Assembly: GCA_052055015.1 (NCBI GenBank)
Contig: JBQJIT010000038.1
Length of the DNA stretch: 45,591 nucleotides
Reading direction: 5' to 3' (one strand)
Source of the DNA: Malassezia furfur
Lineage: Eukaryota
Below are positions 10,116 through 45,591 of the stretch, piece after piece. Numbering within the stretch: position 1 is the stretch's first letter; each line of letters begins with the position of its first letter. The notes beneath the pieces are model-generated. The model did not search any database. It was not told the DNA's origin and was given only the letters and a program-made list of their open reading frames with translations. The position numbers and the translations under genes are program-made.

Positions 10116-12011
<1,896 letters not shown>

Positions 12012-15518: not shown

Positions 15519-16706
15519 TTACAATTTCTCAGATTTGGCGTCCGTGCGCGCGTCCAATTTGGTGGCTTTCAGTTGCTCGGCTAGGGCTTCGGTTGCATCG
15601 GGGTTCGATTCGTCTGAATCGCCTTTGCTAGTTGAGGCCGAGTCCTTCGCACTTTCTTGGACTGCACTCCCTGGATCGGACTGGGCATGCAACTCATCGT
15701 AGAGGTTGTCCAGCTCTTCTTCCCAGCCGCACTTTTGGGCAAGCACACGAATAGTGTCATCCACTTTGCCCTGGCAGAACACGTCGCGTGAGTCTTCACT
15801 AAAATCGAAACCGCCACCACCAAGAGGATCAAATCGAGATAGGAAGCCACTAGACCGCGACTCGCCCACACGGTCGAGATTAAAAAGATATCTCGGGCAC
15901 TGAAGGGGCACTTCGTCTATCAGTGACGCGAAGGGATTAACCTGGATCAGGCAATACACATACCACCAACGATGTTCCCATGACAAGTAAAACTTGGGCA
16001 CGGCGGAAGTCCACCAGCCGCTCGAAGAAACGGTCAGGCAAGTTTTCGCCGAAAACTGCATGAGCCACGCCACATACAGACAATGTCCGGCTTGATGCTT
16101 GGCACCTGATCCTTTTTCTGGCACTTGGGCTGCTCACAGCGGGCCACAGATCCGCCGATCACCTTTTCTTTGAGCCAGTCGTCATCCACCTCTGTCTTGC
16201 ATTCGATACAACGCGCTTTGGCGAATGAGCCATGAGCCTCCACCAACCTGTCGGGTGACAGGCCGCCCAAGAGCTCGAGCGTGTCGACTGTGTGAGCCAT
16301 GCATACGTACTATTCTGCGTAAACACCCGCAAGAGCTTTCCTTTCTTCTCAAGCAGGCGGAAGAAGCAGTGCGTCAGCGTGGGTTTGTACCGTGAGCCGT
16401 CGGGATAAAGCTCTTTGTACAACGTGTAAAACGGTTGCGGGTTCTCGCGGAAAAACCCAATGTCGAACAAAGCCTCCGGGTAAGGTAGGTCATACTTGGC
16501 CAAGCTTGCGTACAGCCCCGTTACGGGCGAGCGAAAGTCGGGGATCCCAGCACTAGTGGAGATCCCCGCACCGGCCATAATCAGCACGCGTTGGACTATG
16601 TGAGTGGTCAATCGCACATACCTTTGCCATTCGTGAGCAGCTTAGCCAGTCCCTCTAGCTGGGCTTCCACGCTAGGCGAAACATTCGGCTTCTTGGATGC
16701 CACCAT
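15519..16706 (-). CDS. HST2: NAD-dependent deacetylase, sirtuin class Ib (Hst2/SIRT2); introns 16596-16621, 16288-16310, 16055-16076, 15942-15963
   Basis: [41 protein letters not shown] and MGTSLV-VNPFASL are restored across four 22-26 nt introns. An alternative ATG lies at 16712. Confidence 0.92.
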
Positions 16707-16791: not shown

Positions 16792-18123
16792 ATGGTCGAG
16801 GGAGGTCCGGCTCGGGCAACACGAGCCGCCAAAAAAGCGGATGCAGAGAAGGAGAGCGAGGAGGTCGCGAAACAGCCCAAGCGTCCTTCGACCGGCGAGC
16901 TGCAGGCGGCTTTGCTCCATATCAACCAGATGCTCTCGCTGTTGGATCTGCCGCTAGCCCAAGGCCGGCCCAGCCGGCAGCCTCCGTCCATGCACGAAGG
17001 CCTGATGTACAGTTTGAACGATCTGCTTATACCCCTCAACTCGCTAATGCGAATCCCATACTCCACGGAGCAAAACCTAGCGGCTGCGATCGGCGCACAG
17101 AACAATGCGGGCAGCGCTCCGACGCACGACTTGGGCGTGTACGAGTCGACTGCAACGGGCATTGCGCACGTACTGGAGCAACTCAACTCGCTCATGCACG
17201 AGTCCCTTCCAGGAAGTTCGGATGGTGACACTGCCGTTCAGGTGGTCGAGCGCCATCTTGCCCAAGACCCACTCAGCACGACTGAAGTTCGCGACGTGCT
17301 TTTGCGCATGCGGCAAAAACGTCGACGACTAACCGCTGTACCTACCGCCCAGACAGGAAAAGGGCGGAGTTCCAAAAATCCGCCAGGAACCGCGCTACGG
17401 AGCCCCCTGTATCCCATGCCAACGGCGCTGCACTTTGCGAGCCTCACACCCTGGATCGAGGAGTGCGAGGCATCTGCCAAGAGCCAGCCGATTCAGGATT
17501 CCCTCAAAGTGCTTGTCCAATCCTTCAATGAAGTCATGGCCGTACGGTGCCGCAACGAGGCCGAGGCGCTGAGATCGCCCAGCCGCGACTTTGGGCAGCA
17601 TCTGCCGATACAGCGCGTGCGAGCACGACTCGCTTCATGGGGTGACCGGGCTGGAGAAATCCAAGTCGAACTTCGAGACATTGCGCTCATTACGATAGGG
17701 CTGCAAGGTGCGGACGATGGTGCGCATGTGGCACGAATCAACCTGTTTGCTCCGAGCGAGTCGGGCGACGACGAGCGCCGCGGCGTGAGTGGCTCGCTCC
17801 TTCCTTCAAGGTTTGCGCGGTACAATGAAATTGCAGACCATCTTCTCATCTATGCACTCGAACGGCAGCGAAGTATGTCCTACCTGCAGGCCCTGGGTCA
17901 TACCCTGGAGCAGGTGGCTGCGTTACGCACTGTTTTTGATCCACTGCCTGTACCCGAGTCGCTCGTTTCGCCCGTCCCAGCACGCATCGAGGTCGGCACG
18001 CTGGCGCAAGACAAAACTATGGACCACGCGAAATGCATCGTATGGAAATGGTGCAGCGTGCTGCAGCCCGACGCGACCACGCCACAGGGCGAGTGGTGCG
18101 CCTACTCGCCACGGCTGATGTAA
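16792..18123 (+). CDS. Hypothetical 443-aa protein, possibly a divergent Mediator subunit MED27
   Basis: Single long ORF. The C-terminal segment INLFAPSE...PSRFARYNEIADHLL...VAALRTVFDP...WCAYSP resembles my recollection of the Med27 C-terminal domain; not verified by search. Confidence 0.4.
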   Translation: MVEGGPARATRAAKKADAEKESEEVAKQPKRPSTGELQAALLHINQMLSLLDLPLAQGRPSRQPPSMHEGLMYSLNDLLIPLNSLMRIPYSTEQNLAAAIGAQNNAGSAPTHDLGVYESTATGIAHVLEQLNSLMHESLPGSSDGDTAVQVVERHLAQDPLSTTEVRDVLLRMRQKRRRLTAVPTAQTGKGRSSKNPPGTALRSPLYPMPTALHFASLTPWIEECEASAKSQPIQDSLKVLVQSFNEVMAVRCRNEAEALRSPSRDFGQHLPIQRVRARLASWGDRAGEIQVELRDIALITIGLQGADDGAHVARINLFAPSESGDDERRGVSGSLLPSRFARYNEIADHLLIYALERQRSMSYLQALGHTLEQVAALRTVFDPLPVPESLVSPVPARIEVGTLAQDKTMDHAKCIVWKWCSVLQPDATTPQGEWCAYSPRLM

Positions 18124-18129
18124 CACGTG
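18124..18129. promoter_or_regulatory. CACGTG(A) box upstream of ERG3
   Basis: Immediately follows the upstream stop codon, 84 nt before the ERG3 ATG. Confidence 0.45.
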
Positions 18130-18212
18130 ATCTGACCGGGTCCAGAGTCACGCCACATAGTCTTGCATAAATTTTGGCTCGCACTGCGTGTGTAGTGTGC
18201 GTTCCCGGCACC

Positions 18213-19169
18213 ATGGACTTGGTTCTGCACATTGCGGACGAATACGTCCTGGACTCCGTGTGGGCTCACCTGCTGCCTGCGTCTCGATTCTCGTCGGCAT
18301 GTGGTGCACAGGATTCCATGCTGAACAAAACGGTGATCGATACGCAGCAGATGATTTCCCAGTGCGGTGAGCCTGGCAAGGCCGTATCGTGGCTGCCGCG
18401 CGACAACATTGTGCGCCAGACGATCTCGCTCTACGTGATCACGTATATTGGGATCCTGTTGCTCTATTTCTCAATGGCGTCCCTCTCCTACTACTTCCTG
18501 TTCAACAAAGATCTGATGAAGCATCCCCGCTTCCTCAAAAATCAGATTAAACTTGAAATCCAGTCATCGCTTCGCGCGTTCCCATGGCTCGACCTACTGA
18601 CGGTGCCATGGTTTGTGGCTGAGGTGCGGGGCTACTCGCGGGTATACGATCGGTGGGATGAGTATGGGCTGTGGTACCTGATTCTGAGTGTGCCCTTCTT
18701 TCTGCTCTTTACCGATATCTGCATCTATTGGGTGCACCGTATCGAACACCACCCATCTATCTACAAATACGTGCACAAGCCGCACCATAAGTGGATCGTG
18801 CCAACACCGTTTGCCTCGCACGCGTTCCACCCGATTGACGGGTATGCACAGAGCCTGCCGTACCACATTTTCCCGGTGCTCTTCCCCCTGAACAAGCTTC
18901 TGTTCCTTGGCCTGTTTGGTTTTGTGAACATGTGGAGCATCATGATCCACGATTCGGACATGATCACCGGCACAGGGCTGGAGCGCATCATCAATGGCCC
19001 GGCACACCACACTCTGCATCACCTGTACTTTACTTGCAACTACGGCCAGTACAGTACCCTCTGCGACCGCCTCGGCAACAGCTTCCGCGAGCCGCATCGT
19101 GATGATGACCCCCTGATTCTGGCAAACCAGTCTCAGCCTGAGACGCGTGCCCACGTCAAGGAAGAGTAG
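18213..19169 (+). CDS. ERG3: C-5 sterol desaturase
   Basis: MDLVL start; His boxes HRIEH, HKPHHKW, HHTLHH; TPFASHAFHP; NYGQY. Confidence 0.95.
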   Translation: MDLVLHIADEYVLDSVWAHLLPASRFSSACGAQDSMLNKTVIDTQQMISQCGEPGKAVSWLPRDNIVRQTISLYVITYIGILLLYFSMASLSYYFLFNKDLMKHPRFLKNQIKLEIQSSLRAFPWLDLLTVPWFVAEVRGYSRVYDRWDEYGLWYLILSVPFFLLFTDICIYWVHRIEHHPSIYKYVHKPHHKWIVPTPFASHAFHPIDGYAQSLPYHIFPVLFPLNKLLFLGLFGFVNMWSIMIHDSDMITGTGLERIINGPAHHTLHHLYFTCNYGQYSTLCDRLGNSFREPHRDDDPLILANQSQPETRAHVKEE

Positions 19170-20271: not shown

Positions 20272-20727
20272 TGCTGCCCTCTCGCTGGGACTCTGGACGA
20301 CAACCGGTGTGTTTGGCGACGACGATCGCTGTTGAGCGGGTGCGATCGGGAGCGACCCGATCGTCCTCCACTTTTGGATACGTTACTGCATGTGCCCACC
20401 ACATATGCAAATGAAGCGAGCAGGCGTGGCCAGGCAATGCAGGCAAATACATTGTTAGCCATAAAGCCCTTTGCATCCTTGGTGTTTTGGGTGTTTACAG
20501 CTTGCGGGGCTGTTCCTCTTTATCGTTGTAGCTAGCAATATATTGTACTGGAGCTAGTTTGATTTGAACCATGCGCATGCTGGCTATCGATACTACATTG
20601 AATCCTGTTTTCTGAGGCAGTATTGTCTTGGAGCTGGTCACAGCATCGGTCGTACGGCGGGACGCCGCGCACAGACCTTGCGGCCGCATGGCTTGTGGGG
20701 AAGGGGCACCGCCGTTCTCAACCAGGT

Positions 20728-20760
20728 CACGTGAATTGATAAAACTATACTTACCACGTG
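20728..20760. promoter_or_regulatory. Tandem CACGTG boxes in the RPL7 promoter
   Basis: TCACGTGA (core 20728-20733) and CCACGTGA (core 20755-20760), about 100-130 nt upstream of the ATG. Confidence 0.5.
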
Positions 20761-20860
20761 ATGAACAGGGTGCCGGCGGCACGCCGCGCGCTGTAAGGTC
20801 GTGCTCGCGGAAGGTTTTCGTTCTCACCTCCCATCGGTTGCACCGACACTTACACTCAAG

Positions 20861-22002
20861 ATGTCTGCTGCCCTGGTCAAGACGTACGTACTGCTCGCGG
20901 ATCCATCCCATGTTATTATGCGAGTGTTTGTATCGTGTCATGCGTGTGTGCGGTGAAAACGCGCGCACGAAACAGGACCCGATACGATGCGTGTAATAAC
21001 TTGGATGCCGCACTTTTTTCGTTCACAGTACTAACACCAAACCAGTTCTGTGCCTAGCGCCAAGGATGTGCTCGTCCCCGAGACGCTTCTGAAGAAGCGG
21101 AAGACCGACTCGAAGCTCCGCGAGGAGAAGCAGGCCAAGGCCGTCGAGCTCCGCAAGGTGTGTATTGCACACCTCTCGTATCTGCGCGCATATCCCCGAC
21201 GCCCTCTACATGATGTATACCAACCTTTTGTGGACTAGGCGTGCTTTGCATTGCCGATGATGTCTCAATTATACCATCTTTCGGGGCTGATTTGACTTTC
21301 ATTGTCATGGGAGGGGTCTCTTGCGTGCAGCAGATACGGGAGACGTTTTGTGTGAACATGTACTAACCCTTACAGGCCCGGAAGCAGAAGCGTGCCGTCA
21401 TCTTCAAGCGTGCCGAGCAGTACGTGAAGGAGTACAAGGCGCTGGAGCGTGAGCAGATTCGCCTGCGCCGCCTTGCCAAGTCGCAGGGTGACTTCTACGT
21501 GCCGGCCCAGCCCCGTGTTGCCTTTGTTGTGCGTCTGCGCGGTATCAGCAACATCCCCCCCAAGCCGCGCAAGATCATGCAGCTCCTGCGTCTGCTCCAG
21601 ATCAACAACGGTGTCTTCCTGAAGCTCACCAACGCGACCCAGCAGATGCTCCAGCTGATCACTCCCTACGTCGCCTGGGGTGAGCCGAACCTGAAGACCA
21701 TCCGTGAGCTCATCTACAAGCGTGGTTACGCCAAGATCAACCGCCAGCGCATCCCTATCTCCGACAACAGCATCATTGAGGAGCAGCTTGGCAAGTACGG
21801 CATCATCTCGGTCGAGGACCTCGTCCACGAGATTGCCACCGCCGGCCCCAACTTCAAGGTCGCGAACCAGTTCCTGTGGCCCTTCCAGCTCTCGAGCCCG
21901 ACGGGTGGCTTCAAGAAGCGCAAGTTCAAGCACTACATCGAGGGCGGTGACGCTGGTGACCACGAGTCGGACATCAACCGCCTGGTTCGCCGCATGAACT
22001 AA
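20861..22002 (+). CDS. RPL7: 60S ribosomal protein L7 (uL30); join(20861..20883,21046..21157,21376..22002)
   Basis: [47 protein letters not shown] motifs; strong codon bias; introns of 162 and 218 nt, both with perfect TACTAAC branch sites. Confidence 0.97.
20897..21011 (+). other. Long imperfect hairpin filling RPL7 intron 1
   Basis: Nested complementary blocks GCGG/CCGC, ATCCA/TGGAT, GTTATTA/TAATAAC, GTATCG/CGATAC and CGTGTGTGCG/CGCGCGCACG around loop GTGAAAA (20953-20959). Confidence 0.8.
21206..21293 (+). ncRNA. snR39B: Intronic box C/D snoRNA, snR39B/SNORD2-like (guide for the LSU rRNA G equivalent to yeast Gm805)
   Basis: C-like box ATGATGT 21210-21216, C'-like ATGATG 21257-21262, D box CTGA 21287-21290. 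The guide ACCATCTTTCGGG (21273-21285) is complementary to conserved LSU CCCGAAAGAUGGU, and the D+5 rule targets the G of CCCG. Ends are approximate. Confidence 0.85.
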
Positions 22003-22400: not shown

Positions 22401-24782
22401 ATGTCTAGTGTTGTCGGTCTGGATATCGGTAACAGTAGCAGCAAGTGCGTATTGCGTTCCTTAAGGCTCCATTGCTAACTGTGCAGAATCGGCGTCGCCC
22501 GCGCGCGCGGCGTCGACATTGTCGCAAATGAAGTGAGCAACCGCAGCACGCCGTCGCTGGTGTCGTTCCTCGACAAGGCGCGTGCCATCGGTGAGGCGGC
22601 GGCCACCGCGCAGACTTCCAACTTCAAGAACACGGTTGGGTCGCTCAAGCGCCTGGTCGGTCGCAAGTTCGATGACGAGGCGATTCAGAACATTGAGAAG
22701 AAGTTCATCTACGCCGAGCTGGTCGATGCCGGCGGCGAGGTAGGTGTCAAGGTGAACTACGCCGGTGAGCAGCACGTCTTCTCGGCAACGCAGGTGCTCG
22801 CCATGTACCTGGCCAAGCTGCGCGACACGGCGCAGAACGAGCTGGGTGGCCAGACGGTGAGCGACGTCGTCTTCTCGGTGCCCATCTGGTTCAGGGACAG
22901 CCAGCGCCGTGCGATGCTGGCGGCTGCGGAGATCGCAAACCTGAACCCGCTGCGCGCGATCAACGAGCCGACTGCCACTGCGCTTGGCTATGGTATCACC
23001 AAGACGGACCTCCCTGAGCCGGAGAACCCGCGCAACGTGGTATTTGTTGATATTGGCCACTCGAACTACCAGGTGTCGGTGGTGGCCTTCAGCAAGGGTC
23101 AGCTCACCGTGCTGGGTGCATCGGCGGACCCCAACTTTGGTGGTCGCAACTTCGACCGCGCGCTGGTGGAGCACTTTGCTGAGGAGTTCAAGGGCAAGTA
23201 CAAGATCGACGTCTTCTCGAGCCCGAAGGCCGTCTTCCGTCTGGCTGCCGGGTGTGAGCGCCTGAAGAAGGTGCTGTCCGCCAACAGCCTTGCTCAGCTT
23301 AACGTCGAGAGCTTGATGAATGACATCGACGCCTCGTCGCAGCTTAAGCGCGAGGAGTTCGAGGAGCTGATCAAGCCCTACCTCGCGAACATCGAAGCGC
23401 CGCTTAACGAGGCGCTCGAGCAGTCGGGTCTGACCAAGGACGAGATCTTCTCCGTGGAGCTGGTCGGTGGTAGCACGCGTGTGCCTGCGCTCAAGGAGCG
23501 TATCGCCGCGTGGTTCGGCAAGGGCCTCTCGACGACGCTCAACGCCGACGAGGCGGTGGTTCGTGGTGACACGCTGGCTTGCGCCACGCTCTCGCCCGTG
23601 TTCCGCGTGCGTGAGTTCTCGGTGCACGATGTCTCGCCCTACCCCATCAAGGTTTCGTGGCCGCCCGCGGCGGATGTGCCCGACGAGGAGAACGAGCTGG
23701 TGGTCTTCGCGAAGAACAACCCCGTGCCCTCGACCAAGATCCTCACCTTCTACCGCAAGGAGCCCTTCACACTCGAGGCGGCCTACGCGGACCCTGCCCA
23801 CCTGCCCATCGGCACCCAGCCGGCACTCGGCCAGGTGAGCATCGACAAGGTGGCGCCCAACGCCCAGGGCGACCATTCGATTGTCAAGGTGAAGGCGCGT
23901 TTCAACCTGCACGGTGTGCTCAACGTGGAGAGCGCCTACACGGTCGACGAGGTCGAGAAGGAGGAGGAGGTGCCCGTCGAGGGTGCGCAGCAGGTCGAGG
24001 GTGAGCCCGTCAAGACCGAGAAGCGCGTGGTGAAGAAGCTGCAGCGCAAGGACGACCTGCCCGTCGTCTCGCACATCAGCCACCTGACCGTGGAGCAGAT
24101 TGCGCAGCTCAAGGAGAAGGAGGGCCAGATGCACGCCGCCGACAAGCTCGTGGCGGACACCGAGGACCGCCGCAATGCGCTGGAGGAGTACATCTACGAC
24201 CAACGCTCGCGCCTGAGCGAGCGCTACGCCGCCTTTGTCCAAGCAGACGAGAAGGAGAAGTACCTTGCCGAGCTGAGCCAGGCCGAGGACTGGCTCTACA
24301 CGGAGGAGGGCGAGGATGCGACCAAGTCGGCGTACACCTCGCGTCTCGAGGCGCTCGAGAAGATGGGTGCGCCCATCCACAACCGTTGGAAGCAGAACGA
24401 GGAGCGCCCCAAGGCCGCCTCGCAGCTGCGTGAGGTGCTCAACAAGTACTCCACCGTGTTCGAGCAGGAGCCCGAGAAGTACGACCACCTCTCGGACGAC
24501 GACAAGACCAAGGTGATCGAGAAGGTCGCCAACGTGTCGAAGTGGCTCGACGACTGGATGTACAAGCAGAGCGAGCTGCCCAAGAACGCGGACCCCAAGC
24601 TCACTGTGGAGGACATCATGAAGAACAAGGACGACGTGATCTATGTCGTGACCCCGATCCTTGCCAAGCCCAAGCCTCGCGCCGCGCCTGAGCCCCCCAA
24701 GGCGGACACCAACGCGAACGCGGACGGCCAGGCGAACCAGGAGCAGGCGGACAAGCAGCAGGGTGACATGGACGTGGACTAA
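22401..24782 (+). CDS. SSE1: Hsp110-family chaperone (Sse1/Hsp88); join(22401..22444,22487..24782)
   Basis: MSSVVGLDIGN, NEVSNRSTPSLV, NFGGRNFD, LNADEAVVRG, EDWLY motifs; C-terminal MDVD; 42-nt intron. Confidence 0.95.
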
Positions 24783-26138: not shown

Positions 26139-29100
26139 CTACGAGGAGCACCGTGCGGTGGCTGCTGCAATGTCATCGACGAACGTCGCAATCCGGTCCT
26201 TGGCCCCAGCTTCGTCAGGGACCGCGTCATGCTCTTGTAGGGTATCCGCATGCACAGGCTCCGCCAAGTCCGTATAAATTCGTAGCTGCTTCTCTTCCAT
26301 CATTGTCGCCAGTGCATAAAGTTCCCGTGCGTCTAGCACCGCATCCAAGCGGGGCGAAAATGCTTTTAGGTAAAGCGCTGGGTAAGTCGAATCCAACGTA
26401 CATTTGTCAAAAGGACAGTGCCGAATGGCCTGGTAAATCAATGCCTTGGCGCGCTGCAACGTCTGATTCGATTCGCGTCGACGCTGCCCGGCTGGATTGG
26501 CAAGGAGATGCATTTCGAATCCGATGGCTAAATGCCACAAAATGGACGAAGCACGCATGACATAGAGTGCTCTGTCAAACAAGCGGCGAATACGATCTGC
26601 ATCGACGTGTCTTTGCATCCGGAGCTCGACCACGATCGCAAGTATCCATGTTTGCTCGGTATTGTACCATCCATCGACAATTTCTTCAGCAGGTTGCAGC
26701 AGAAGGTTCGTCCAAGCACCCATCGTCCCTTTTTGTAAGACGGTCGTTTGCAAAAAGTTCCGCACATGGTTCTCAACGTGCGCATGCTGTTCTTGGAGCG
26801 TCAGCACTTGCAGATGACACGAGTTCTGCGCATTCTCTTGAGCCAGTCGGGTTGTGATCGCGCGCACTTCCCGTGGCCGAAAGGCGGCGTTGGGGCATAC
26901 GTGGCGCAGGGTATACAAGAAACGCTGAAAGGCTGCCGCAGTTTGCTGTTGCGCGCTGCCCTGGGCCGCCGCAAGTACATTGGTGAAAATGGACGCAGGT
27001 ACTGTCAACTCGTCACCGGCTGGAACGTCTTGGAGCAAAAATTCTGCAAGCGCGGTACAAAAGGCGAGCGATGCGAGCTTACGAGCGTATGACTCCGTAT
27101 CGTTGCAAGCGCGTTCGACCTGTTTGCGCAACGTCTGCAGCGTATGCAGTTTCTCGGTGCCTCGCAGCGCCTCTTTCTGGGCCGGAAAGACACGTGCATG
27201 TAAGCTGCTGGGCTCGCCCACAAACGCCAATTGAGCAGCAGCAGCCACTGAGAGCACACGCAGGGTTGTCGTGACATCACCCATGGCCCACTCCATCTCA
27301 GACCAAAGCGCCCATAACAAATGTGCCTCGTACGCATGGCTGTGCGAGGTCGTACATCCGACAGAGCCCAGGACCTGGACGACAACTTTCCGTGCGGCCT
27401 CGACATTGCCCCATGTGCTCAACTCAAGTTGGGCGTACGCATACCATAGCATAATAAGTTGATCGTTGCGTTGCAGCGCGGCACGTAGTACTTTCCGCGC
27501 ACTCTTAGGATTACCTGCAGCAGCACACACCATGGCATGTGGCAATGCAATCATACTCGCGAGGTCCTTGTAACCTGCTGCGCTCAGGCGCTGTTCAACA
27601 TGTACCAGAATACGTTCTGCAATTTGTGCCGTTTTCATTGTAAGCCTAGGCAGTACACAAAACCACCGCCCACGCGGATCCTGCGAGGTGCGTGGAAAAA
27701 AGGTATCGGGGGTAAGTGGCACATTTTGCACGGATAATGGGTGTGCATTGTCGGATTGCAGCCACGGTTCCTGCGACCACATCTCCGACGGCACAGTAAA
27801 GTGCTCCATGTCCGGCCATACGGTTGGCCGCTGTCTGAATTCGTTGTCCACTGGGAGAAAGGTCTGACCGAACAGCAGCGATGCGGAGAACCAATGAGAA
27901 GGCATACCCACGTATGCGAACAGTGCATCGGCGACCCGGATCGTCGAAGCCAGTACGTTCGAGCTAGGTTCGACCATGAACATGCGGAGATCATCAAAGA
28001 GCACGTAGGAGAACGGGTCGACCGACATGCCAGGGAGGTCGTCCTCGAACCGCCAAGGCGAGGCATGCTCGGCCGCATTTAGCTCAGTCCGTTGCCATGC
28101 CACCATTTCCTGGTTGCCGAGGGTTTCGCCACCGTCAGGCTGCTCTTGGGGAAGTGTGCTGGCATTCTGCAAGTATAGGGACAGCTGCCGTACCACGTTT
28201 TGATCATGGTTGAGATGAAACCCGTCGTAGGGAAGTGTGTCCCCCACTCGCGCATGCTCTGCATCCCACCAGGCCCCAAAGATCTCTGTGATGTGCTCAA
28301 ACTTGAGGTGGGGATGGCGCCCGTTCTCTAACACCCCCAAGTGAAGTTCTAAGAGTCCTTGTAGGATCCCATAGGCTCGTTCTTGGTACCCTGCGCTGCG
28401 CAAAGTTGAGCAGAGCTCGCTTACAATGTGCAGCTGGAACGCATGCACGATGTCCAAATCGGCTGCAAACATGGTTTGTTGTGGTGCTGCGAGAGCCTCT
28501 TCAAATATGCCGAGCATGTCGTCAAGGGCAAATGACGCCCAGTCGCTTTTGCGAAAGTGGACATACAGCCACCACAAGCGACAGTATTCGCGAAGCGAAG
28601 CATCCCTGCGACCCACATACTCTTCGAGCACATTTCGCCAGGCGCGATTCAGTTTTTCGCTCGTCCAAAGGCCGACATTAGCCGCTAGAAGGAGTCGTCC
28701 CAGCACCAATGGCATTGCCCCCTTGTTGTGCTCTGATGCCTCTTCCGCACGGTCCAAGACCGCCATCTGCATACGCGCCACACTCGACTCTTCTGCACGC
28801 GAGAGTGGTGTAGTCGGGTCGGCGTGCACCATAAGTGCTTGGAGTTCGGCGAGGTCGAACCATGCCCGAATGTCACTAGGGTTTTGCTGAGTGCGTTCGT
28901 GGAGCTTGCGGCTTAATGCTTGGACAGAATCTTGTGCAAAAACAGGTGCGTCTGTGAGCTTTCCCCTAGATTTGGGCGTCTTTGTCGTACGGTACGGGTC
29001 GCGATAAGCCTGGAGCGTGGATGCTTCTTTGGGGCGTTCCAACTCGACATAGGCAGCCTCGTCGTGCGACGGCGAGCCAGGCACAGGTGGAGGAGCTTGA

Positions 29101-29546
29101 ATCAAGTTCTTTGAAGGTGCTGCTTGTTGAGGATGGGCAGACGGCGCTGCCTGCCCAAGAGCCATACGGTGATTCGTCCGCTCGTACTTGGGTGTGGTAT
29201 ATTTGCTGGGTCCCAGCCTGGCTGTGTCTGCATCGCCAAATCGATCGATCACAAAAAGAGGGTCTTCTTGCATGAGTGACGTTTGCTTGGTAGACTCATG
29301 CGAGGCGACATGCTCAGTGCGCGCGCGGTGCCTGTGCCGTGTCGACGAGGTGTCGGTGTGTTCATGATGGCGGTGTTCCGTCCGTTCTCGATGTTTATGC
29401 TCGCGCCGCGTATCCGTAACTTTTGAATGGTCTTGAAACGCTTGCCTCGCCTGTGAGTGTGTGCCCTCGGGCGGCGACTGAACTGCAGACGGCGTGCGCG
29501 CCGCCGGCTGAAAGGACGCGAACCGCGGCGCGCCCCCCGGAGCCAT
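26139..29546 (-). CDS. NRDE2: NRDE-2/Nrl1 HAT-repeat splicing- and RNA-surveillance-associated protein; probable 24-nt in-frame intron 26378-26401
   Basis: N-terminal PRFASF; FVIDRFGD; NPSDIRAW; GYQERA; WWDAEHARVG; DPFSYVLFDDL; LWYAYAQLE; C-terminal YQAIRHCPFDK-S-LYL...MMEEKQLRI. Confidence 0.8.
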   Translation of the reverse strand: MAPGGAPRFASFQPAARTPSAVQSPPEGTHSQARQAFQDHSKVTDTRREHKHRERTEHRHHEHTDTSSTRHRHRARTEHVASHESTKQTSLMQEDPLFVIDRFGDADTARLGPSKYTTPKYERTNHRMALGQAAPSAHPQQAAPSKNLIQAPPPVPGSPSHDEAAYVELERPKEASTLQAYRDPYRTTKTPKSRGKLTDAPVFAQDSVQALSRKLHERTQQNPSDIRAWFDLAELQALMVHADPTTPLSRAEESSVARMQMAVLDRAEEASEHNKGAMPLVLGRLLLAANVGLWTSEKLNRAWRNVLEEYVGRRDASLREYCRLWWLYVHFRKSDWASFALDDMLGIFEEALAAPQQTMFAADLDIVHAFQLHIVSELCSTLRSAGYQERAYGILQGLLELHLGVLENGRHPHLKFEHITEIFGAWWDAEHARVGDTLPYDGFHLNHDQNVVRQLSLYLQNASTLPQEQPDGGETLGNQEMVAWQRTELNAAEHASPWRFEDDLPGMSVDPFSYVLFDDLRMFMVEPSSNVLASTIRVADALFAYVGMPSHWFSASLLFGQTFLPVDNEFRQRPTVWPDMEHFTVPSEMWSQEPWLQSDNAHPLSVQNVPLTPDTFFPRTSQDPRGRWFCVLPRLTMKTAQIAERILVHVEQRLSAAGYKDLASMIALPHAMVCAAAGNPKSARKVLRAALQRNDQLIMLWYAYAQLELSTWGNVEAARKVVVQVLGSVGCTTSHSHAYEAHLLWALWSEMEWAMGDVTTTLRVLSVAAAAQLAFVGEPSSLHARVFPAQKEALRGTEKLHTLQTLRKQVERACNDTESYARKLASLAFCTALAEFLLQDVPAGDELTVPASIFTNVLAAAQGSAQQQTAAAFQRFLYTLRHVCPNAAFRPREVRAITTRLAQENAQNSCHLQVLTLQEQHAHVENHVRNFLQTTVLQKGTMGAWTNLLLQPAEEIVDGWYNTEQTWILAIVVELRMQRHVDADRIRRLFDRALYVMRASSILWHLAIGFEMHLLANPAGQRRRESNQTLQRAKALIYQAIRHCPFDKCTLDSTYPALYLKAFSPRLDAVLDARELYALATMMEEKQLRIYTDLAEPVHADTLQEHDAVPDEAGAKDRIATFVDDIAAATARCSS

Positions 29547-29739
29547 CGTGGGGGTGGAGGTCCTTACGTCATCTGGGGCGTGCACGGTGATCGGCATAAT
29601 TCCCATTATCGCCACGCGTGCGTGCGCGTTGAACCGTCCGGTGGTCCGCGCTTACGACGCTTCGTGAGTTGCCACCGCATCGCGGAGGTAGACCAGAGCC
29701 GTTCAGCGAATTGCACGTTATCCGTGGACTAATTCTATC

Positions 29740-39536: not shown

Positions 39537-40859
39537 CTATACTGTATATCCACGAGCCTCGAGCGCATCCAGAAGGGCATCAAGCCTGCTCTGCGACCAC
39601 TGCACGCCGCGTTCCAGCAATTCTGCCTGGCCTGGGTGAGTGGGGGCACGTACCGTTGCGATATTCACGAATCTTGGCCAAGATCGAGTCGCGAACGCCG
39701 TCTGTCCCATCCTCTGCAACCCATGGGAGCGCATCGTCCACTTCATGCTGGGTCCGGACAAAGTGCGACCGCCGCATATGGAGGAACTGCTCCAGAGCCT
39801 CGCACGCATTCGCTTGGCGCAGCAACGAAGCAATCTCAGGATCATCAGCGTCTTCCTGGGCCATTTGGTCAGTGAGTATTTGGAGCACCTCGGTGGGTGG
39901 TTCAGCTTGCGCTTTCGACCAGTACACCATCTGAATCTCTCCATCGTTGGGCCGTCGCAGCGCAAGTACCAGCACATCATCTGGGCCGCCAGGCTGGACG
40001 AACCCATACGAGGCAGCCAATTCCTCGTTGCTTTTGGCACCGTAATTGTTAAACACCTGAGCACCAGGTGCCACTGCAGCGCGGGTCAAAAAACACGCTG
40101 CGTGATCCTTGCACTCCCATGTGACCTGCTCCCCGCGGCGGTGATTCAGGCAATCCAAACCGGGTACAAGTATAGGTACCGATTCAGCAGGCGGCGACCA
40201 GCCGGCAATTGATGCAGGAAAGCTTCGACTTCATTAGTATATGCCGTACCTTGTATACACATTCCGCGCCCATCGGCAGTGGGCCAACCATGTCTTTTCA
40301 TCTTGGACTGCAGCGCGAAGCAGCGCGCGCGCAGGGTCTGTGCTGGTTTCGAGGGCGGATGCGAGCCAGCTGCGGAGCCGCTGGGCACTCTCAGCTGTCT
40401 TTTGAAGCTGCAATTGAGCATTGTTGTAAAGAGATGTGCCTTCAAGGAGACCTAGCTCTGCAGGATAATACTCAAGCGGCGTCTCAAAGGTGTTGGGCAA
40501 AATACGCACATACGGCTTGTGTAAGAGGTAGGCGTCCACCTCAGCAAAGTCCTTGCCTTCGTACAACTTGTGGAACACAAGGTACAAGGTAATAAGGTCA
40601 TGCGATTCAAGCTCTTGGGGTATGGGCAATGCCACGATGGATTCTGTGCGGACGCGGCAAAGGTCGGGGTGCACACAGAGGGACTGGGGAATCGTCAGGA
40701 CACGCGTATTGGCTACTAGCCCCTCTTCCGTAAACAATCCCCATCCTGCATTATCGTCTTCCGTTAGCACGTGTACATGCCTTGCGAAAAGTACAGCTTC
40801 CCTGCAAACTGGGCGCCTCCATCTTGCATCCATGCCAGAAACGCTGCATGCTCCTCCAT
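39537..40859 (-). CDS. SET-domain (Rubisco-LSMT/Efm1/Rkm-like) protein lysine methyltransferase; introns 40758-40780 (GC-AG), 40229-40249, 39632-39653
   Basis: FLAWM..GG, GWGLF, PYVRILP...TPL, LLEGTSL, YT-S-RSFP, LVPGLDCLNH, QVFNNYGAKSNEEL..SYGF. Confidence 0.85.
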
Positions 40860-43688: not shown

Positions 43689-45591
43689 TTATTGGGCCGC
43701 AGCGTGACGTAGTTCTATCAGCGGCGCCAAAGCGCGTCGGTGTTAGTATACAGTGCTCATACCACCAGGCGTACATACCTTGCGCGCGCTTCGCTTCGCG
43801 CCCCTCCAACTGCCCCATAGGCGAGTCGGTCCCGGAACGATCTGGCCTGGTCGTCTCCGCCTCGCCGAGCGCATCCATATCCTCGGCGTCGTTCATCACG
43901 TCATGCTCATCTTCGTCGGCATCGCCATGCGGGTCGGCTGTCTGCACTTCATCGATGACAAACGTGTCGCGCTCCTGTGAGAGTGCCTCGTTGGCCACAC
44001 GCAGGCTTTCGACAGCTGCCTCAGGGCCTTTGTCGGCCAGTGCGTCGTCATCCTGTGCTGCCTTGGGCTCCGACTCGGCGGGCTCCACGGAGACCGACTC
44101 TTGCTCGGTCTTAGATGGTTGTCGACGCAGTGCGCCCACGAGCCGCCCGCCGAGGCTGGGCCGCACACCGGCCTCGCCCGTCATAGCGCCCGCTGCCGCC
44201 GAGGCGCCTCGCATGAACGCATTGCCCCACATGCCCTTGGGCTTCTCCGGCTCAGCGGTCGTCTGGGGCGCAAAACTCGGCAATGGTCCCTTCACCGTGT
44301 GGGTCTGCAACCGCAGCGCGACTTGGTCGGCGAGTGCGTCCATACGGGTCTTGCCCTCTTCGCCCAGTAGGCCACCTAGGAATCCGACGACCTTGCCGCG
44401 CGTACCGGTGGTAACGTCCCGGGAGTAGCTTGCGGGGGTATCCGCATCCAGCGGGGCGGCATTCCCATGGATGAGCGTCGAGGCAAGCGACACGGTGCCG
44501 TTGGACGACTTGCCCGTATTCCCCGCGACCGCCTTGGGCGTTCCGCGGGGGGCGATGGGCGCCGCGTGCCAGGCAAAAGCCCCGCCCGTACTAGACCGCT
44601 GCACGGGCTCCAAATGGATCGAGTGCACCAGGTCGTGCTCGAAAAAATTCTGTAGCACCGGCGAGGCCAGGGCCAGGGCGCGAAACGAAGCAAGCGACAG
44701 GAACGGCTGCGTCTCGTCGTCGGCAGGCGGCGCCGCAGCGTCGCTCAGCTCGGCGACCGGTGTACCTGCCGTTTTGGGAGCATCGGCGGTCGGAGCCGCT
44801 GTGGTCACAGAAGGACCGCCAGGAACGCCGGACGTGTCTGCCGGCTTGGCCGGTGCAGTAGGGTTCGGCTTGGTCGTGGTATGCGTTGTAGTCTTCGCCG
44901 CTGCAGGGGACTCCATGGAAGCTGCTGTGGCAGCGACATGCACAGGTGACTTGGATGCGGCAATTGTCGCTGTCTGTGCCGCTGGCTCCAGTGCAGTATT
45001 CTCCGATGGCGCATCGCTCATGTCCAGGGTACCTTCTTCGAGCGCCGTGGCACGGTCCACCGACACTTCCCAAAGCGCATCCATGTTGCGCTCGAGCTCG
45101 GAAGTCCAGGGTGCTGACCCCATATCATGGATGCTAGATGATGCCGTGCGGTGCAGGATGCTTTCGAGCTCGTCGGTGACCTGTGCACGGTTGTGTGACG
45201 CTGCGATGTACCGCAGGCCGGGGAACTGCCGCTCAAACTGGGAGTACAGGCCCGCGAGACGCGCATCGCCGCGAACGTGCGGGAACCCTGCAAGAAGCTG
45301 TGTTTGCTGCTGTGCGGACCAACCCGGCTCCTCCTCGACACAGAACCGGGCGACGTCCACGAGGCCGTCGTAGGTCAACGGTTGGCTGTCCTCTGGAAGG
45401 TCGGCAATGGCCTCTTTGCACTGCTCGCCTAGCGTTGTGGCAGCCTCGTATGGTAGGTACAGAAGCACCTGCAGCGCACGCGCAAGGCTACGCGCCTCCG
45501 CCGTCGGGATCTCGCTCGCCGGGATCACACCGGCGCGCATCCTGGAGGTGCTGGGCGTGGAGGTGCACGGGCAGCGCCGCGGCCGTGCCCC
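43689..45591 (-). CDS. C-terminal part of a large protein, probably a Gyp2/Mdr1-type RabGAP, containing an OHCU-decarboxylase-like segment; last intron 43715-43778; 5' part outside the window
   Basis: Frame is open to the window end. FLSLASFRALALASPVLQNFFEHDL resembles the Gyp2/Mdr1 C-terminal motif. A 64-nt intron with TACTAAC gives the end RAQ-ELRHAAAQ*. The TBC domain itself is not visible. Confidence 0.55.

Follow-up and report, generated by a model that had tools for sequence, protein, structure and literature searches.

The closest described counterparts of the locus analyzed here are the RPL7A and RPL7B genes of Saccharomyces cerevisiae, which contain two introns, with a small nucleolar RNA (snoRNA) in intron 2 and, in intron 1, a zipper stem together with a conserved alternative structure bound by Rpl7 (bioRxiv 10.1101/2025.03.14.643126). 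The yeast zipper connects the start of intron 1 with a region that precedes the branch point and, in RPL7B, where intron 1 is 409 nucleotides (nt) long, was identified as a splicing enhancer by means of compensatory mutants, being made necessary by the weak UGCUAAC branch site of yeast intron 1 (bioRxiv 10.1101/2025.03.14.643126). [quoted passage not shown] With regard to snoRNAs, human intronic C/D snoRNAs tend to lie some 50 nt upstream of the branch point, and long external stems can free the assembly of the small nucleolar ribonucleoprotein (snoRNP) from its dependence on splicing (PMC5519232). Here we describe the RPL7 (uL30) gene found in a 45,591-nt stretch of Malassezia furfur DNA (contig JBQJIT010000038.1, assembly GCA_052055015.1; hereafter, the window). 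The reading that we favour, to which we assign a probability of roughly 60%, is that this gene follows an old two-intron RPL7 design, gene-specific and largely known, in which intron 2 carries a snoRNA enclosed by an external stem and intron 1 forms a zipper-like hairpin.

An earlier, sequence-only reading of the window had assigned introns of 162 and 218 nt to RPL7, both largely closed by nested helices, and a gene model based on reading-frame continuity confirmed the two introns (Table 1). Splice signals were consensus in both, with TACTAAC located 9-11 nt upstream of the 3' AG, and the AAGAC/GT junction at the end of exon 1 recurred in close relatives as well as in distant fungal loci. All of the named helices were found at their coordinates: in intron 2, the main helix is formed by CTCTCGTATCTGC and GCAGATACGGGAG (12 Watson-Crick pairs plus one G-U), while inside it GCGCA faces TGCGT and GACGCCCTC faces GAGGGGTC. 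The number of nucleotides said to lie outside the helices (13+34=47 in intron 1 and 15+33=48 in intron 2) was also correct.

Table 1. Features of the RPL7 locus, in window coordinates. Structures and the snoRNA are predictions.
Feature	Positions	Strand	Details
RPL7 (uL30) exon 1	20861-20883	+	23 nt; ATG at 20861; ends AAGAC/GT; reading frame
RPL7 intron 1	20884-21045	+	162 nt; GTACGT...TACTAAC...CAG; phase 2
Long imperfect hairpin, intron 1	20897-21011	+	43 predicted pairs; holds most of intron 1
Intron 1 branch site TACTAAC	21029-21035	+	branch A at 21034
RPL7 exon 2	21046-21157	+	112 nt; frame continuity; orthologous exon in relatives
RPL7 intron 2, snoRNA host	21158-21375	+	218 nt; GTGTGT...TACTAAC (21361-21367)...CAG; phase 0
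External stem, 5' strand	21173-21206	+	13-nt arm 21173-21185; GCGCA 21186-21190; GACGCCCTC 21198-21206; stops 4 nt before box C
Box C/D snoRNA, snR39/snR59 family	21210-21290	+	81 nt; Rfam snR39 match; predicted; box C ATGATGT 21210-21216; D'-like CTAG 21235-21238; box C' GATGATGTC 21256-21264; guide 21265-21286; box D CTGA 21287-21290
External stem, 3' strand	21311-21342	+	GAGGGGTC 21311-21318; TGCGT 21322-21326; 13-nt arm 21330-21342; begins 20 nt after box D
RPL7 exon 3 including stop codon	21376-22002	+	Pfam Ribosomal_L30_N 3.9e-18, Ribosomal_L30 3.5e-14

Both introns were more stably folded than 200 dinucleotide shuffles of each. The fold of intron 1 reached -59.2 kcal/mol, compared with -43.8 ± 3.8 kcal/mol for its shuffles (z -4.03; 0/200 as good), and that of intron 2 reached -74.7 kcal/mol, compared with -58.8 ± 4.4 kcal/mol (z -3.59; 0/200 as good). 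Pair probabilities were high (0.90-1.00 in the 13-bp helix of intron 2; mean of 0.94 over the 43 pairs of the intron 1 hairpin), and both structures were kept when the 650 nt of pre-mRNA at 20800-21450 were folded together (mean of 0.93 for the hairpin). An additional outer closure of intron 2 by pairing of CACAC with GTGTG, also proposed from the sequence, was weak (pair probability of only 0.11), because CACAC has a second partner in GUGUG at the 5' splice site of the same intron. The intron 2 5' splice site (GUGUGU) can thereby form with CACAC (21168-21172) a small hairpin (21158-21172) that hides it and competes with the outer closure.

With exon 3 as the query, 80 loci were retrieved from metagenome contigs. 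Nine were close relatives (86-88% identity) belonging to four lineages (L001-L003; L004 and L005; L006 and L009; L007 and L008). Both introns lie at the same positions in all the close loci that reach far enough upstream (L001, L002 and L004-L008; L003 and L009 end short), with lengths of 156-258 nt for intron 1 and 227-282 nt for intron 2 in L002 and L004-L007, and both positions are common to distant fungal loci.

The suggestion that a snoRNA could be carried as cargo proved correct for intron 2, which by its Rfam match, guide motif and conserved boxes carries a predicted box C/D snoRNA of the snR39/snR59 family. When 20800-21450 was scanned permissively with Rfam, snR39 (RF01197) was among the top matches, at 21206-21292 (25.6 bits, E 0.03), and snR39 was also the best Rfam match in five of ten related loci scanned (27.2-36.8 bits, all under the gathering score of 40). 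An 18-nt segment of guide plus box D (ACCAUCUUUCGGGGCUGA) was identical to the Rfam snR39 consensus in the alignment, and box C (AUGAUGU) departed from the RUGAUGA consensus at its last base. Across an alignment of 11 loci, the TGATG core of box C, the D'-like GNCTAG, box C', the guide and box D were all invariant. The guide, which we take to pair with a conserved segment of the large-subunit ribosomal RNA, was present 5' of the exon 3 match and in the same orientation in 16 of the 80 loci, including distant ones (64-71% identity), and on the other strand in a 17th. The snoRNA occupies the same RPL7 intron in the window, in all four close lineages and in six or more distant fungal contigs, and the phase-0 position of this intron is shared by the window, the four close lineages, L020, L021, L023, L025 and L043. 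A scan of the window combining C/D boxes and flank pairing gave six candidates, of which the one in RPL7 was the best, and provided no second case; the next plausible (39869-39980, minus strand) sits in apparent coding sequence.

The two flanks of the snoRNA were compared with each other: the stretch from the splice site to box C (5' flank) was folded against the one from box D to the branch site (3' flank), with 300 shuffles of both as the control. Complementarity beyond chance was detected in all five close loci, window included, and in three of five distant contigs. The flank duplex of the window, with about 30 predicted pairs, reached -47.0 kcal/mol (z -4.92; 0/300 shuffles as good), and those of the other close loci ranged similarly: -36.9 kcal/mol in L002 (z -5.28; 0/300), -54.8 in L004 (z -3.38; 1/300), -42.0 in L006 (z -3.93; 0/300) and -46.8 in L007 (z -5.81; 0/300). 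Among the distant contigs, values were -21.2 kcal/mol in L043 (z -6.35; 0/300), -19.3 in L025 (z -3.05; 2/300), -11.3 in L020 (z -2.1 and -2.6 in two runs; 10 and 7/300), -14.2 in L021 (z +0.3 to +0.55; 183 and 206/300) and -6.4 in L023 (z +1.6 to +1.9; 293 and 298/300).

The simplest reading of the nested helices of intron 2 is that they represent pairing between the two flanks of the snoRNA, that is, an external stem. This reading is based on the fact that the snoRNA lies at a non-optimal distance from the branch point and is without a good terminal stem of its own: box D is separated from the branch point by 75 nt in the window, by 75-122 nt across the five close loci and by 38-57 nt in the five distant ones. 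Between lineages only the snoRNA core can be aligned, and the intron 2 flanks cannot. Flanks that are unrelated between lineages, yet complementary within each of them, constitute a stronger evolutionary argument than the counts of pair changes given below. Between L006 and L007, representing the two closest lineages, the flanks of intron 2 were as similar as the third codon positions of exon 3 (90% identity in both cases), and therefore evolve approximately neutrally; the snoRNA showed a single change in 81 nt.

The hairpin of intron 1 leaves 13 nt free after the 5' splice site and stops 22 nt short of the branch A. With the splice signals held open, z values for intron 1 were -3.87 in the window, -2.32 in L002, -2.16 in L004, -2.76 in L005, +0.04 in L006 and -1.57 in L007; the folding tendency of this intron is thus real but uneven among relatives. 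By blastn, no similarity to intron 1 was detected elsewhere in the window or in the 80 loci, and the intron revealed neither a repeat nor a conserved sequence. The presence of a second RNA gene was also considered and discarded, as the only candidate was a sub-threshold microRNA-like hairpin match on the opposite strand (20.5 bits vs. 43), and no Rfam match was obtained in intron 1 across ten related loci.

In the distant fungal loci L021 (635-1010), L023 (1276-1638) and L025 (1839-2209), intron 1 is 363-376 nt long, starts at AAGAC/GT, and its minimum free energy (MFE) structure is closed by a conserved zipper (z -2.71, -3.07 and -7.05, respectively), one pair of which has changed on both sides between L021 and L025. 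These introns contain an element with 85% mean column identity over 64 columns in eight loci, whose core is also present in L012-L015, L017, L018, L026 and L027. The 3' strand of the element can form either a local hairpin, conserved in the eight loci, or a zipper of about 20 bp with a segment located 19-36 nt after the 5' splice site. These alternative pairings look like the published yeast RPL7B switch, and the element probably corresponds to the published Rpl7-binding structure. A covariance model of the eight distant loci (R1) gave no match in RPL7 of the window or of the nine loci searched, L002, L004, L006 and L007 among them, and only five weak matches elsewhere (E 0.79-10). As the model found nothing at these loci, the hairpin of the window is regarded as an analogue of the distant element in position and shape, not as a demonstrated homologue. 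Homology was also sought by means of a 16-nt motif in five introns, with marginal matches only, in the window (11/16 identical, p 0.047), L002 (an exact 8-mer, p 0.023) and L007 (11/16, elsewhere in the intron, p 0.037), and none in intron 1 of L004 and L006; we treat this as a lead, not as a finding.

Taken together, these observations could be accounted for as follows. Intron 2 would be long because of its box C/D snoRNA cargo, and its flanks would pair over their whole length, bringing boxes C and D together, so that the snoRNP could form despite box D lying 75 nt, and not about 50 nt, from the branch point. The hairpin of intron 1 would play the part of the yeast RPL7 zipper stem, as a structural splicing enhancer and possibly as a regulatory site. 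What the analysis shows is the structure of the gene, the presence and conservation of the snoRNA, folds that are more stable than expected and complementary flanks in the five loci; the functions of the two stems are what we infer.

Several results weigh against this account. The snoRNA of the window scores below the Rfam gathering score, and at gathering level there were no Rfam matches in the whole window. In the only set of sequences that could be aligned (four sequences), none of the 66 predicted pairs had changed on both sides, three had changed on one side and were still paired, and one was broken in one sequence, although the sequences are too few for this count to be decisive. The gap from box D to the 3' strand of the stem, about 20 nt in the window and 5-25 nt in relatives, is looser than in a classic terminal stem, and pairing extends along almost the whole of both flanks, beyond what snoRNP assembly alone would need. 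Regarding intron 1, its sequence is common to no relative and does not align between lineages, its folding is uneven among them, and the covariance model of the distant element did not recognize it. The findings place an unannotated, predicted snR39-family snoRNA, under the threshold of Rfam, in a micro-intron genome, and show the RPL7 design (a snoRNA intron plus a structured first intron) to be common to this fungus, its close relatives and distant fungi.

The alternatives have to be considered against the intron sizes of the window. Coding strands were set by Pfam matches on 109 open frames, and introns were validated by frame continuity across candidates. The statement that most introns measure 21-29 nt held, with 12 of 12 validated micro-introns between 21 and 28 nt. 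Their branch A was located 10-23 nt from the intron start in the 11 with a recognisable branch motif. These sizes are similar to those of Malassezia sympodialis, for which 5350 introns with a mean of 30 bp have been described (PMC5389616). Five longer introns were accepted, namely the two in RPL7, one of 42 nt in an Hsp70-type gene, one of 62 nt in HMT1 and one of 45 nt in the gene for the NADH dehydrogenase 20-kDa subunit, the latter plausible only. The HMT1 intron (10913-10974, minus strand) lies two codons before the stop, the spliced C-terminus being ...YKMS. Two candidates of 57 and 69 nt (16021-16077 and 16553-16621) were in fact introns of 22 and 26 nt, since their 3' parts encode conserved SIR2 motifs; those at 18096-18145 and 18534-18597 had no frame support, and neither did a 64-nt candidate at 43715-43778 (minus strand), which bears a perfect GTATGT and TACTAAC (z +1.48). 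Branch motifs in the 17 validated introns were of the CTGAC type in micro-introns (CTAAY in 1/12) and CTAAC or CTAAT in four of the five longer ones (Fisher p ~0.01, small sample); the longer ones may depend on matching U2 more closely.

The 42-nt first intron of the Hsp70-type gene (22445-22486) is absent from all four close lineages that were checked, the coding sequence running on uninterrupted there, and is a gain or loss between close relatives. Its absence there, while the RPL7 introns stay long (156-282 nt), fits the idea of introns kept for their cargo. Two CACGTG boxes separated by about 30 nt (20727-20765) upstream of RPL7 and a CCAYCGGTTGCACCGAC motif just 5' of the ATG (20831-20850) are conserved in the window, L002, L004, L006 and L007, and are likely promoter and 5'-untranslated region elements. 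On the minus strand, 26142-29651 corresponds to a long open frame with an NRDE-2 domain (4.9e-48).

The sequence-only reading had gone further and suggested an effective-length rule. Taken in its strict form, a spliceosome tuned to introns of 21-28 nt would accept longer ones only if stems take the surplus out of the path, and closure would then be selected for splicing itself and hold for every long intron of the genome. One part of this proposal stood: stable long-range helices close both RPL7 introns, whose folds surpassed 200 of 200 shuffles. The helices approach the 5' splice site to 10-15 nt and the branch A to 11-23 nt, which speaks for the rule, as does the short spacing (10-23 nt) between intron start and branch A in the micro-introns. 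The genome-wide rule, however, was not demonstrated, and introns of 42-64 nt were no better folded than their shuffles. This includes the 62-nt HMT1 intron, which had been presented as a further example and whose structure was not above chance (z -0.46; 58/200 shuffles as good), together with those of 42 nt (z +1.42) and 45 nt (z +1.24) and the unvalidated candidate of 64 nt mentioned above.

Nor was the effective distance itself informative in its simplest form. [quoted passage not shown] Short residual lengths are thus uninformative, because any sequence of such size and composition yields them, and it has been noted that the ends of large RNAs are necessarily close together (PMC3017586). 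This serves as a control for the effective-length idea: as shuffles also give short end-to-end distances, only excess helix stability is informative. When a stricter distance was calculated, counting only helices of at least 5 stacked pairs with a probability of at least 0.7 (60 shuffles), observed values of 21-81 were below the shuffle medians (64-126) in ten of ten introns, but none of them stood out individually, as 7-28 of the 60 shuffles reached an equally short distance, nor do the ten introns count as independent cases. The shift points towards the rule, yet the effect is modest.

Other evidence was likewise divided. Flank pairing in the close loci is strong and involves whole flanks (-37 to -55 kcal/mol), while around the same snoRNA in the five distant loci it only reaches -6 to -21 kcal/mol, a contrast that speaks for the rule. 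The zipper linkers amount to 13 + 22 = 35 nt in intron 1 and 15 + 23 = 38 nt in intron 2 (13-bp helix), compared with 50, 71 and 78 nt in the distant loci; values of 35-38 nt, under the yeast minimum of 42 nt, lean towards the rule as one observation from very few lineages. Nevertheless, the residual path after closure (about 36 nt in intron 1 and 39 nt in intron 2 via the 13-bp helix) is still around twice the micro-intron spacing, the same two introns are closed in distant fungi too, and the sample comes down to a single gene, for which the yeast orthologue shares the design on grounds particular to that gene. Moreover, the 5.6-kb flanks of the four close lineages contain no intron informative on whether they have the micro-intron habit. 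A limited literature search, which included the available part of the Stentor paper, found no published account of such a rule in micro-intron organisms, which does not show that the idea is unpublished. The genome-wide rule is not established by these data, and we regard it as doubtful. A narrower version appears equally tentative: that in micro-intron yeasts (21-28 nt) cargo-bearing long introns might be selected to zip shut over their full length, leaving a residual path of about 20-40 nt, under the S. cerevisiae minimum of 42 nt; flank pairing would then be of use for splicing no less than for snoRNP assembly, and closure would be the stronger the smaller the typical introns of a lineage are. 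Should this full-length zipping be real, RPL7 would be a compact natural test case for a micro-intron spliceosome on long substrates.

Somewhat less probable is that the hairpin of intron 1 is a neutral by-product, for instance of an inverted duplication within a fast-evolving intron, the length of the intron being kept by a promoter or enhancer element acting at the DNA level or by a protein-binding site. Such an origin would suit a sequence that is unique to the window, in an intron that is unalignable between lineages and whose structure in relatives varies from z +0.04 to -2.76. In addition, all 14 differences between intron 1 of L006 and L007 fall in the 5' half (14 in 86 nt), and none in the 70 nt of the 3' half (L006: 2078-2147), which points to a conserved linear element and not to a conserved helix; exon 2, with one change in 112 nt, is also little diverged, so that the 3' half and exon 2 either are under constraint as an element or lie in a tract where divergence is locally low. 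On the other hand, four of the five close-relative loci have z values of about -1.6 or lower, and a zipper exists in the orthologous intron of yeast and of three distant loci, both of which agree better with the zipper-like role that we favour.

It also seems improbable that the self-complementarity pairs each 5' splice site with its own branch site, thus preventing the skipping of the 112-nt exon 2, an idea of splice-site and branch-site pairing that Howe and Ares reportedly proposed for yeast RPL7A. The layout, with two self-complementary introns around a short middle exon, is the same, and the loss of exon 2 would shift the frame, but a system that removes introns of 21-28 nt presumably defines introns directly, which would make skipping unlikely. 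Finally, RNase III-dependent release is known for some yeast snoRNAs and the flank duplex of about 30 predicted pairs is long, but it is very improbable that the stems are RNase III-type cleavage sites freeing the snoRNA from unspliced pre-mRNA; no feature particular to such cleavage came to light, and this route would presumably sacrifice the host mRNA, which comes from a ribosomal protein gene with high expression.

Compared with known systems, the predicted snoRNA agrees with Rfam RF01197 (snR39, clan CL00054) in box C, box D and the 18-nt guide-plus-box-D segment, and differs from it in the middle of the RNA, which departs from the yeast seed, with scores of 25.6-36.8 bits in the window and relatives. 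The pairing around it resembles the external stems of intronic C/D snoRNAs (Hirose, Shu and Steitz 2003, summarised in PMC5519232) in having complementary flanks and a snoRNA located beyond about 50 nt from the branch point, whereas the stems described here are unusually long, using nearly all of both flanks, with a 3' strand that begins 5-25 nt after box D. Relative to the zipper stems of Rangan et al. (PMC12350175), both RPL7 introns have qualifying predicted stems (the 43-pair hairpin and the 13-bp helix) at fitting distances from the intron ends, but their linkers are below the 42-nt minimum, which cannot apply here because whole introns of this organism measure 21-28 nt. With respect to S. 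cerevisiae RPL7A/B, the introns of M. furfur are shorter (162 and 218 nt, RPL7B intron 1 having 409 nt), the branch site is in both cases the consensus TACTAAC in place of the UGCUAAC of yeast intron 1, and the covariance model gave no counterpart of the conserved protein-binding 'Hooks' structure; in common with the yeast genes are the two introns, the short middle exon, the C/D snoRNA with the same guide in intron 2 (snR39/snR59) and the long-range stem of intron 1.

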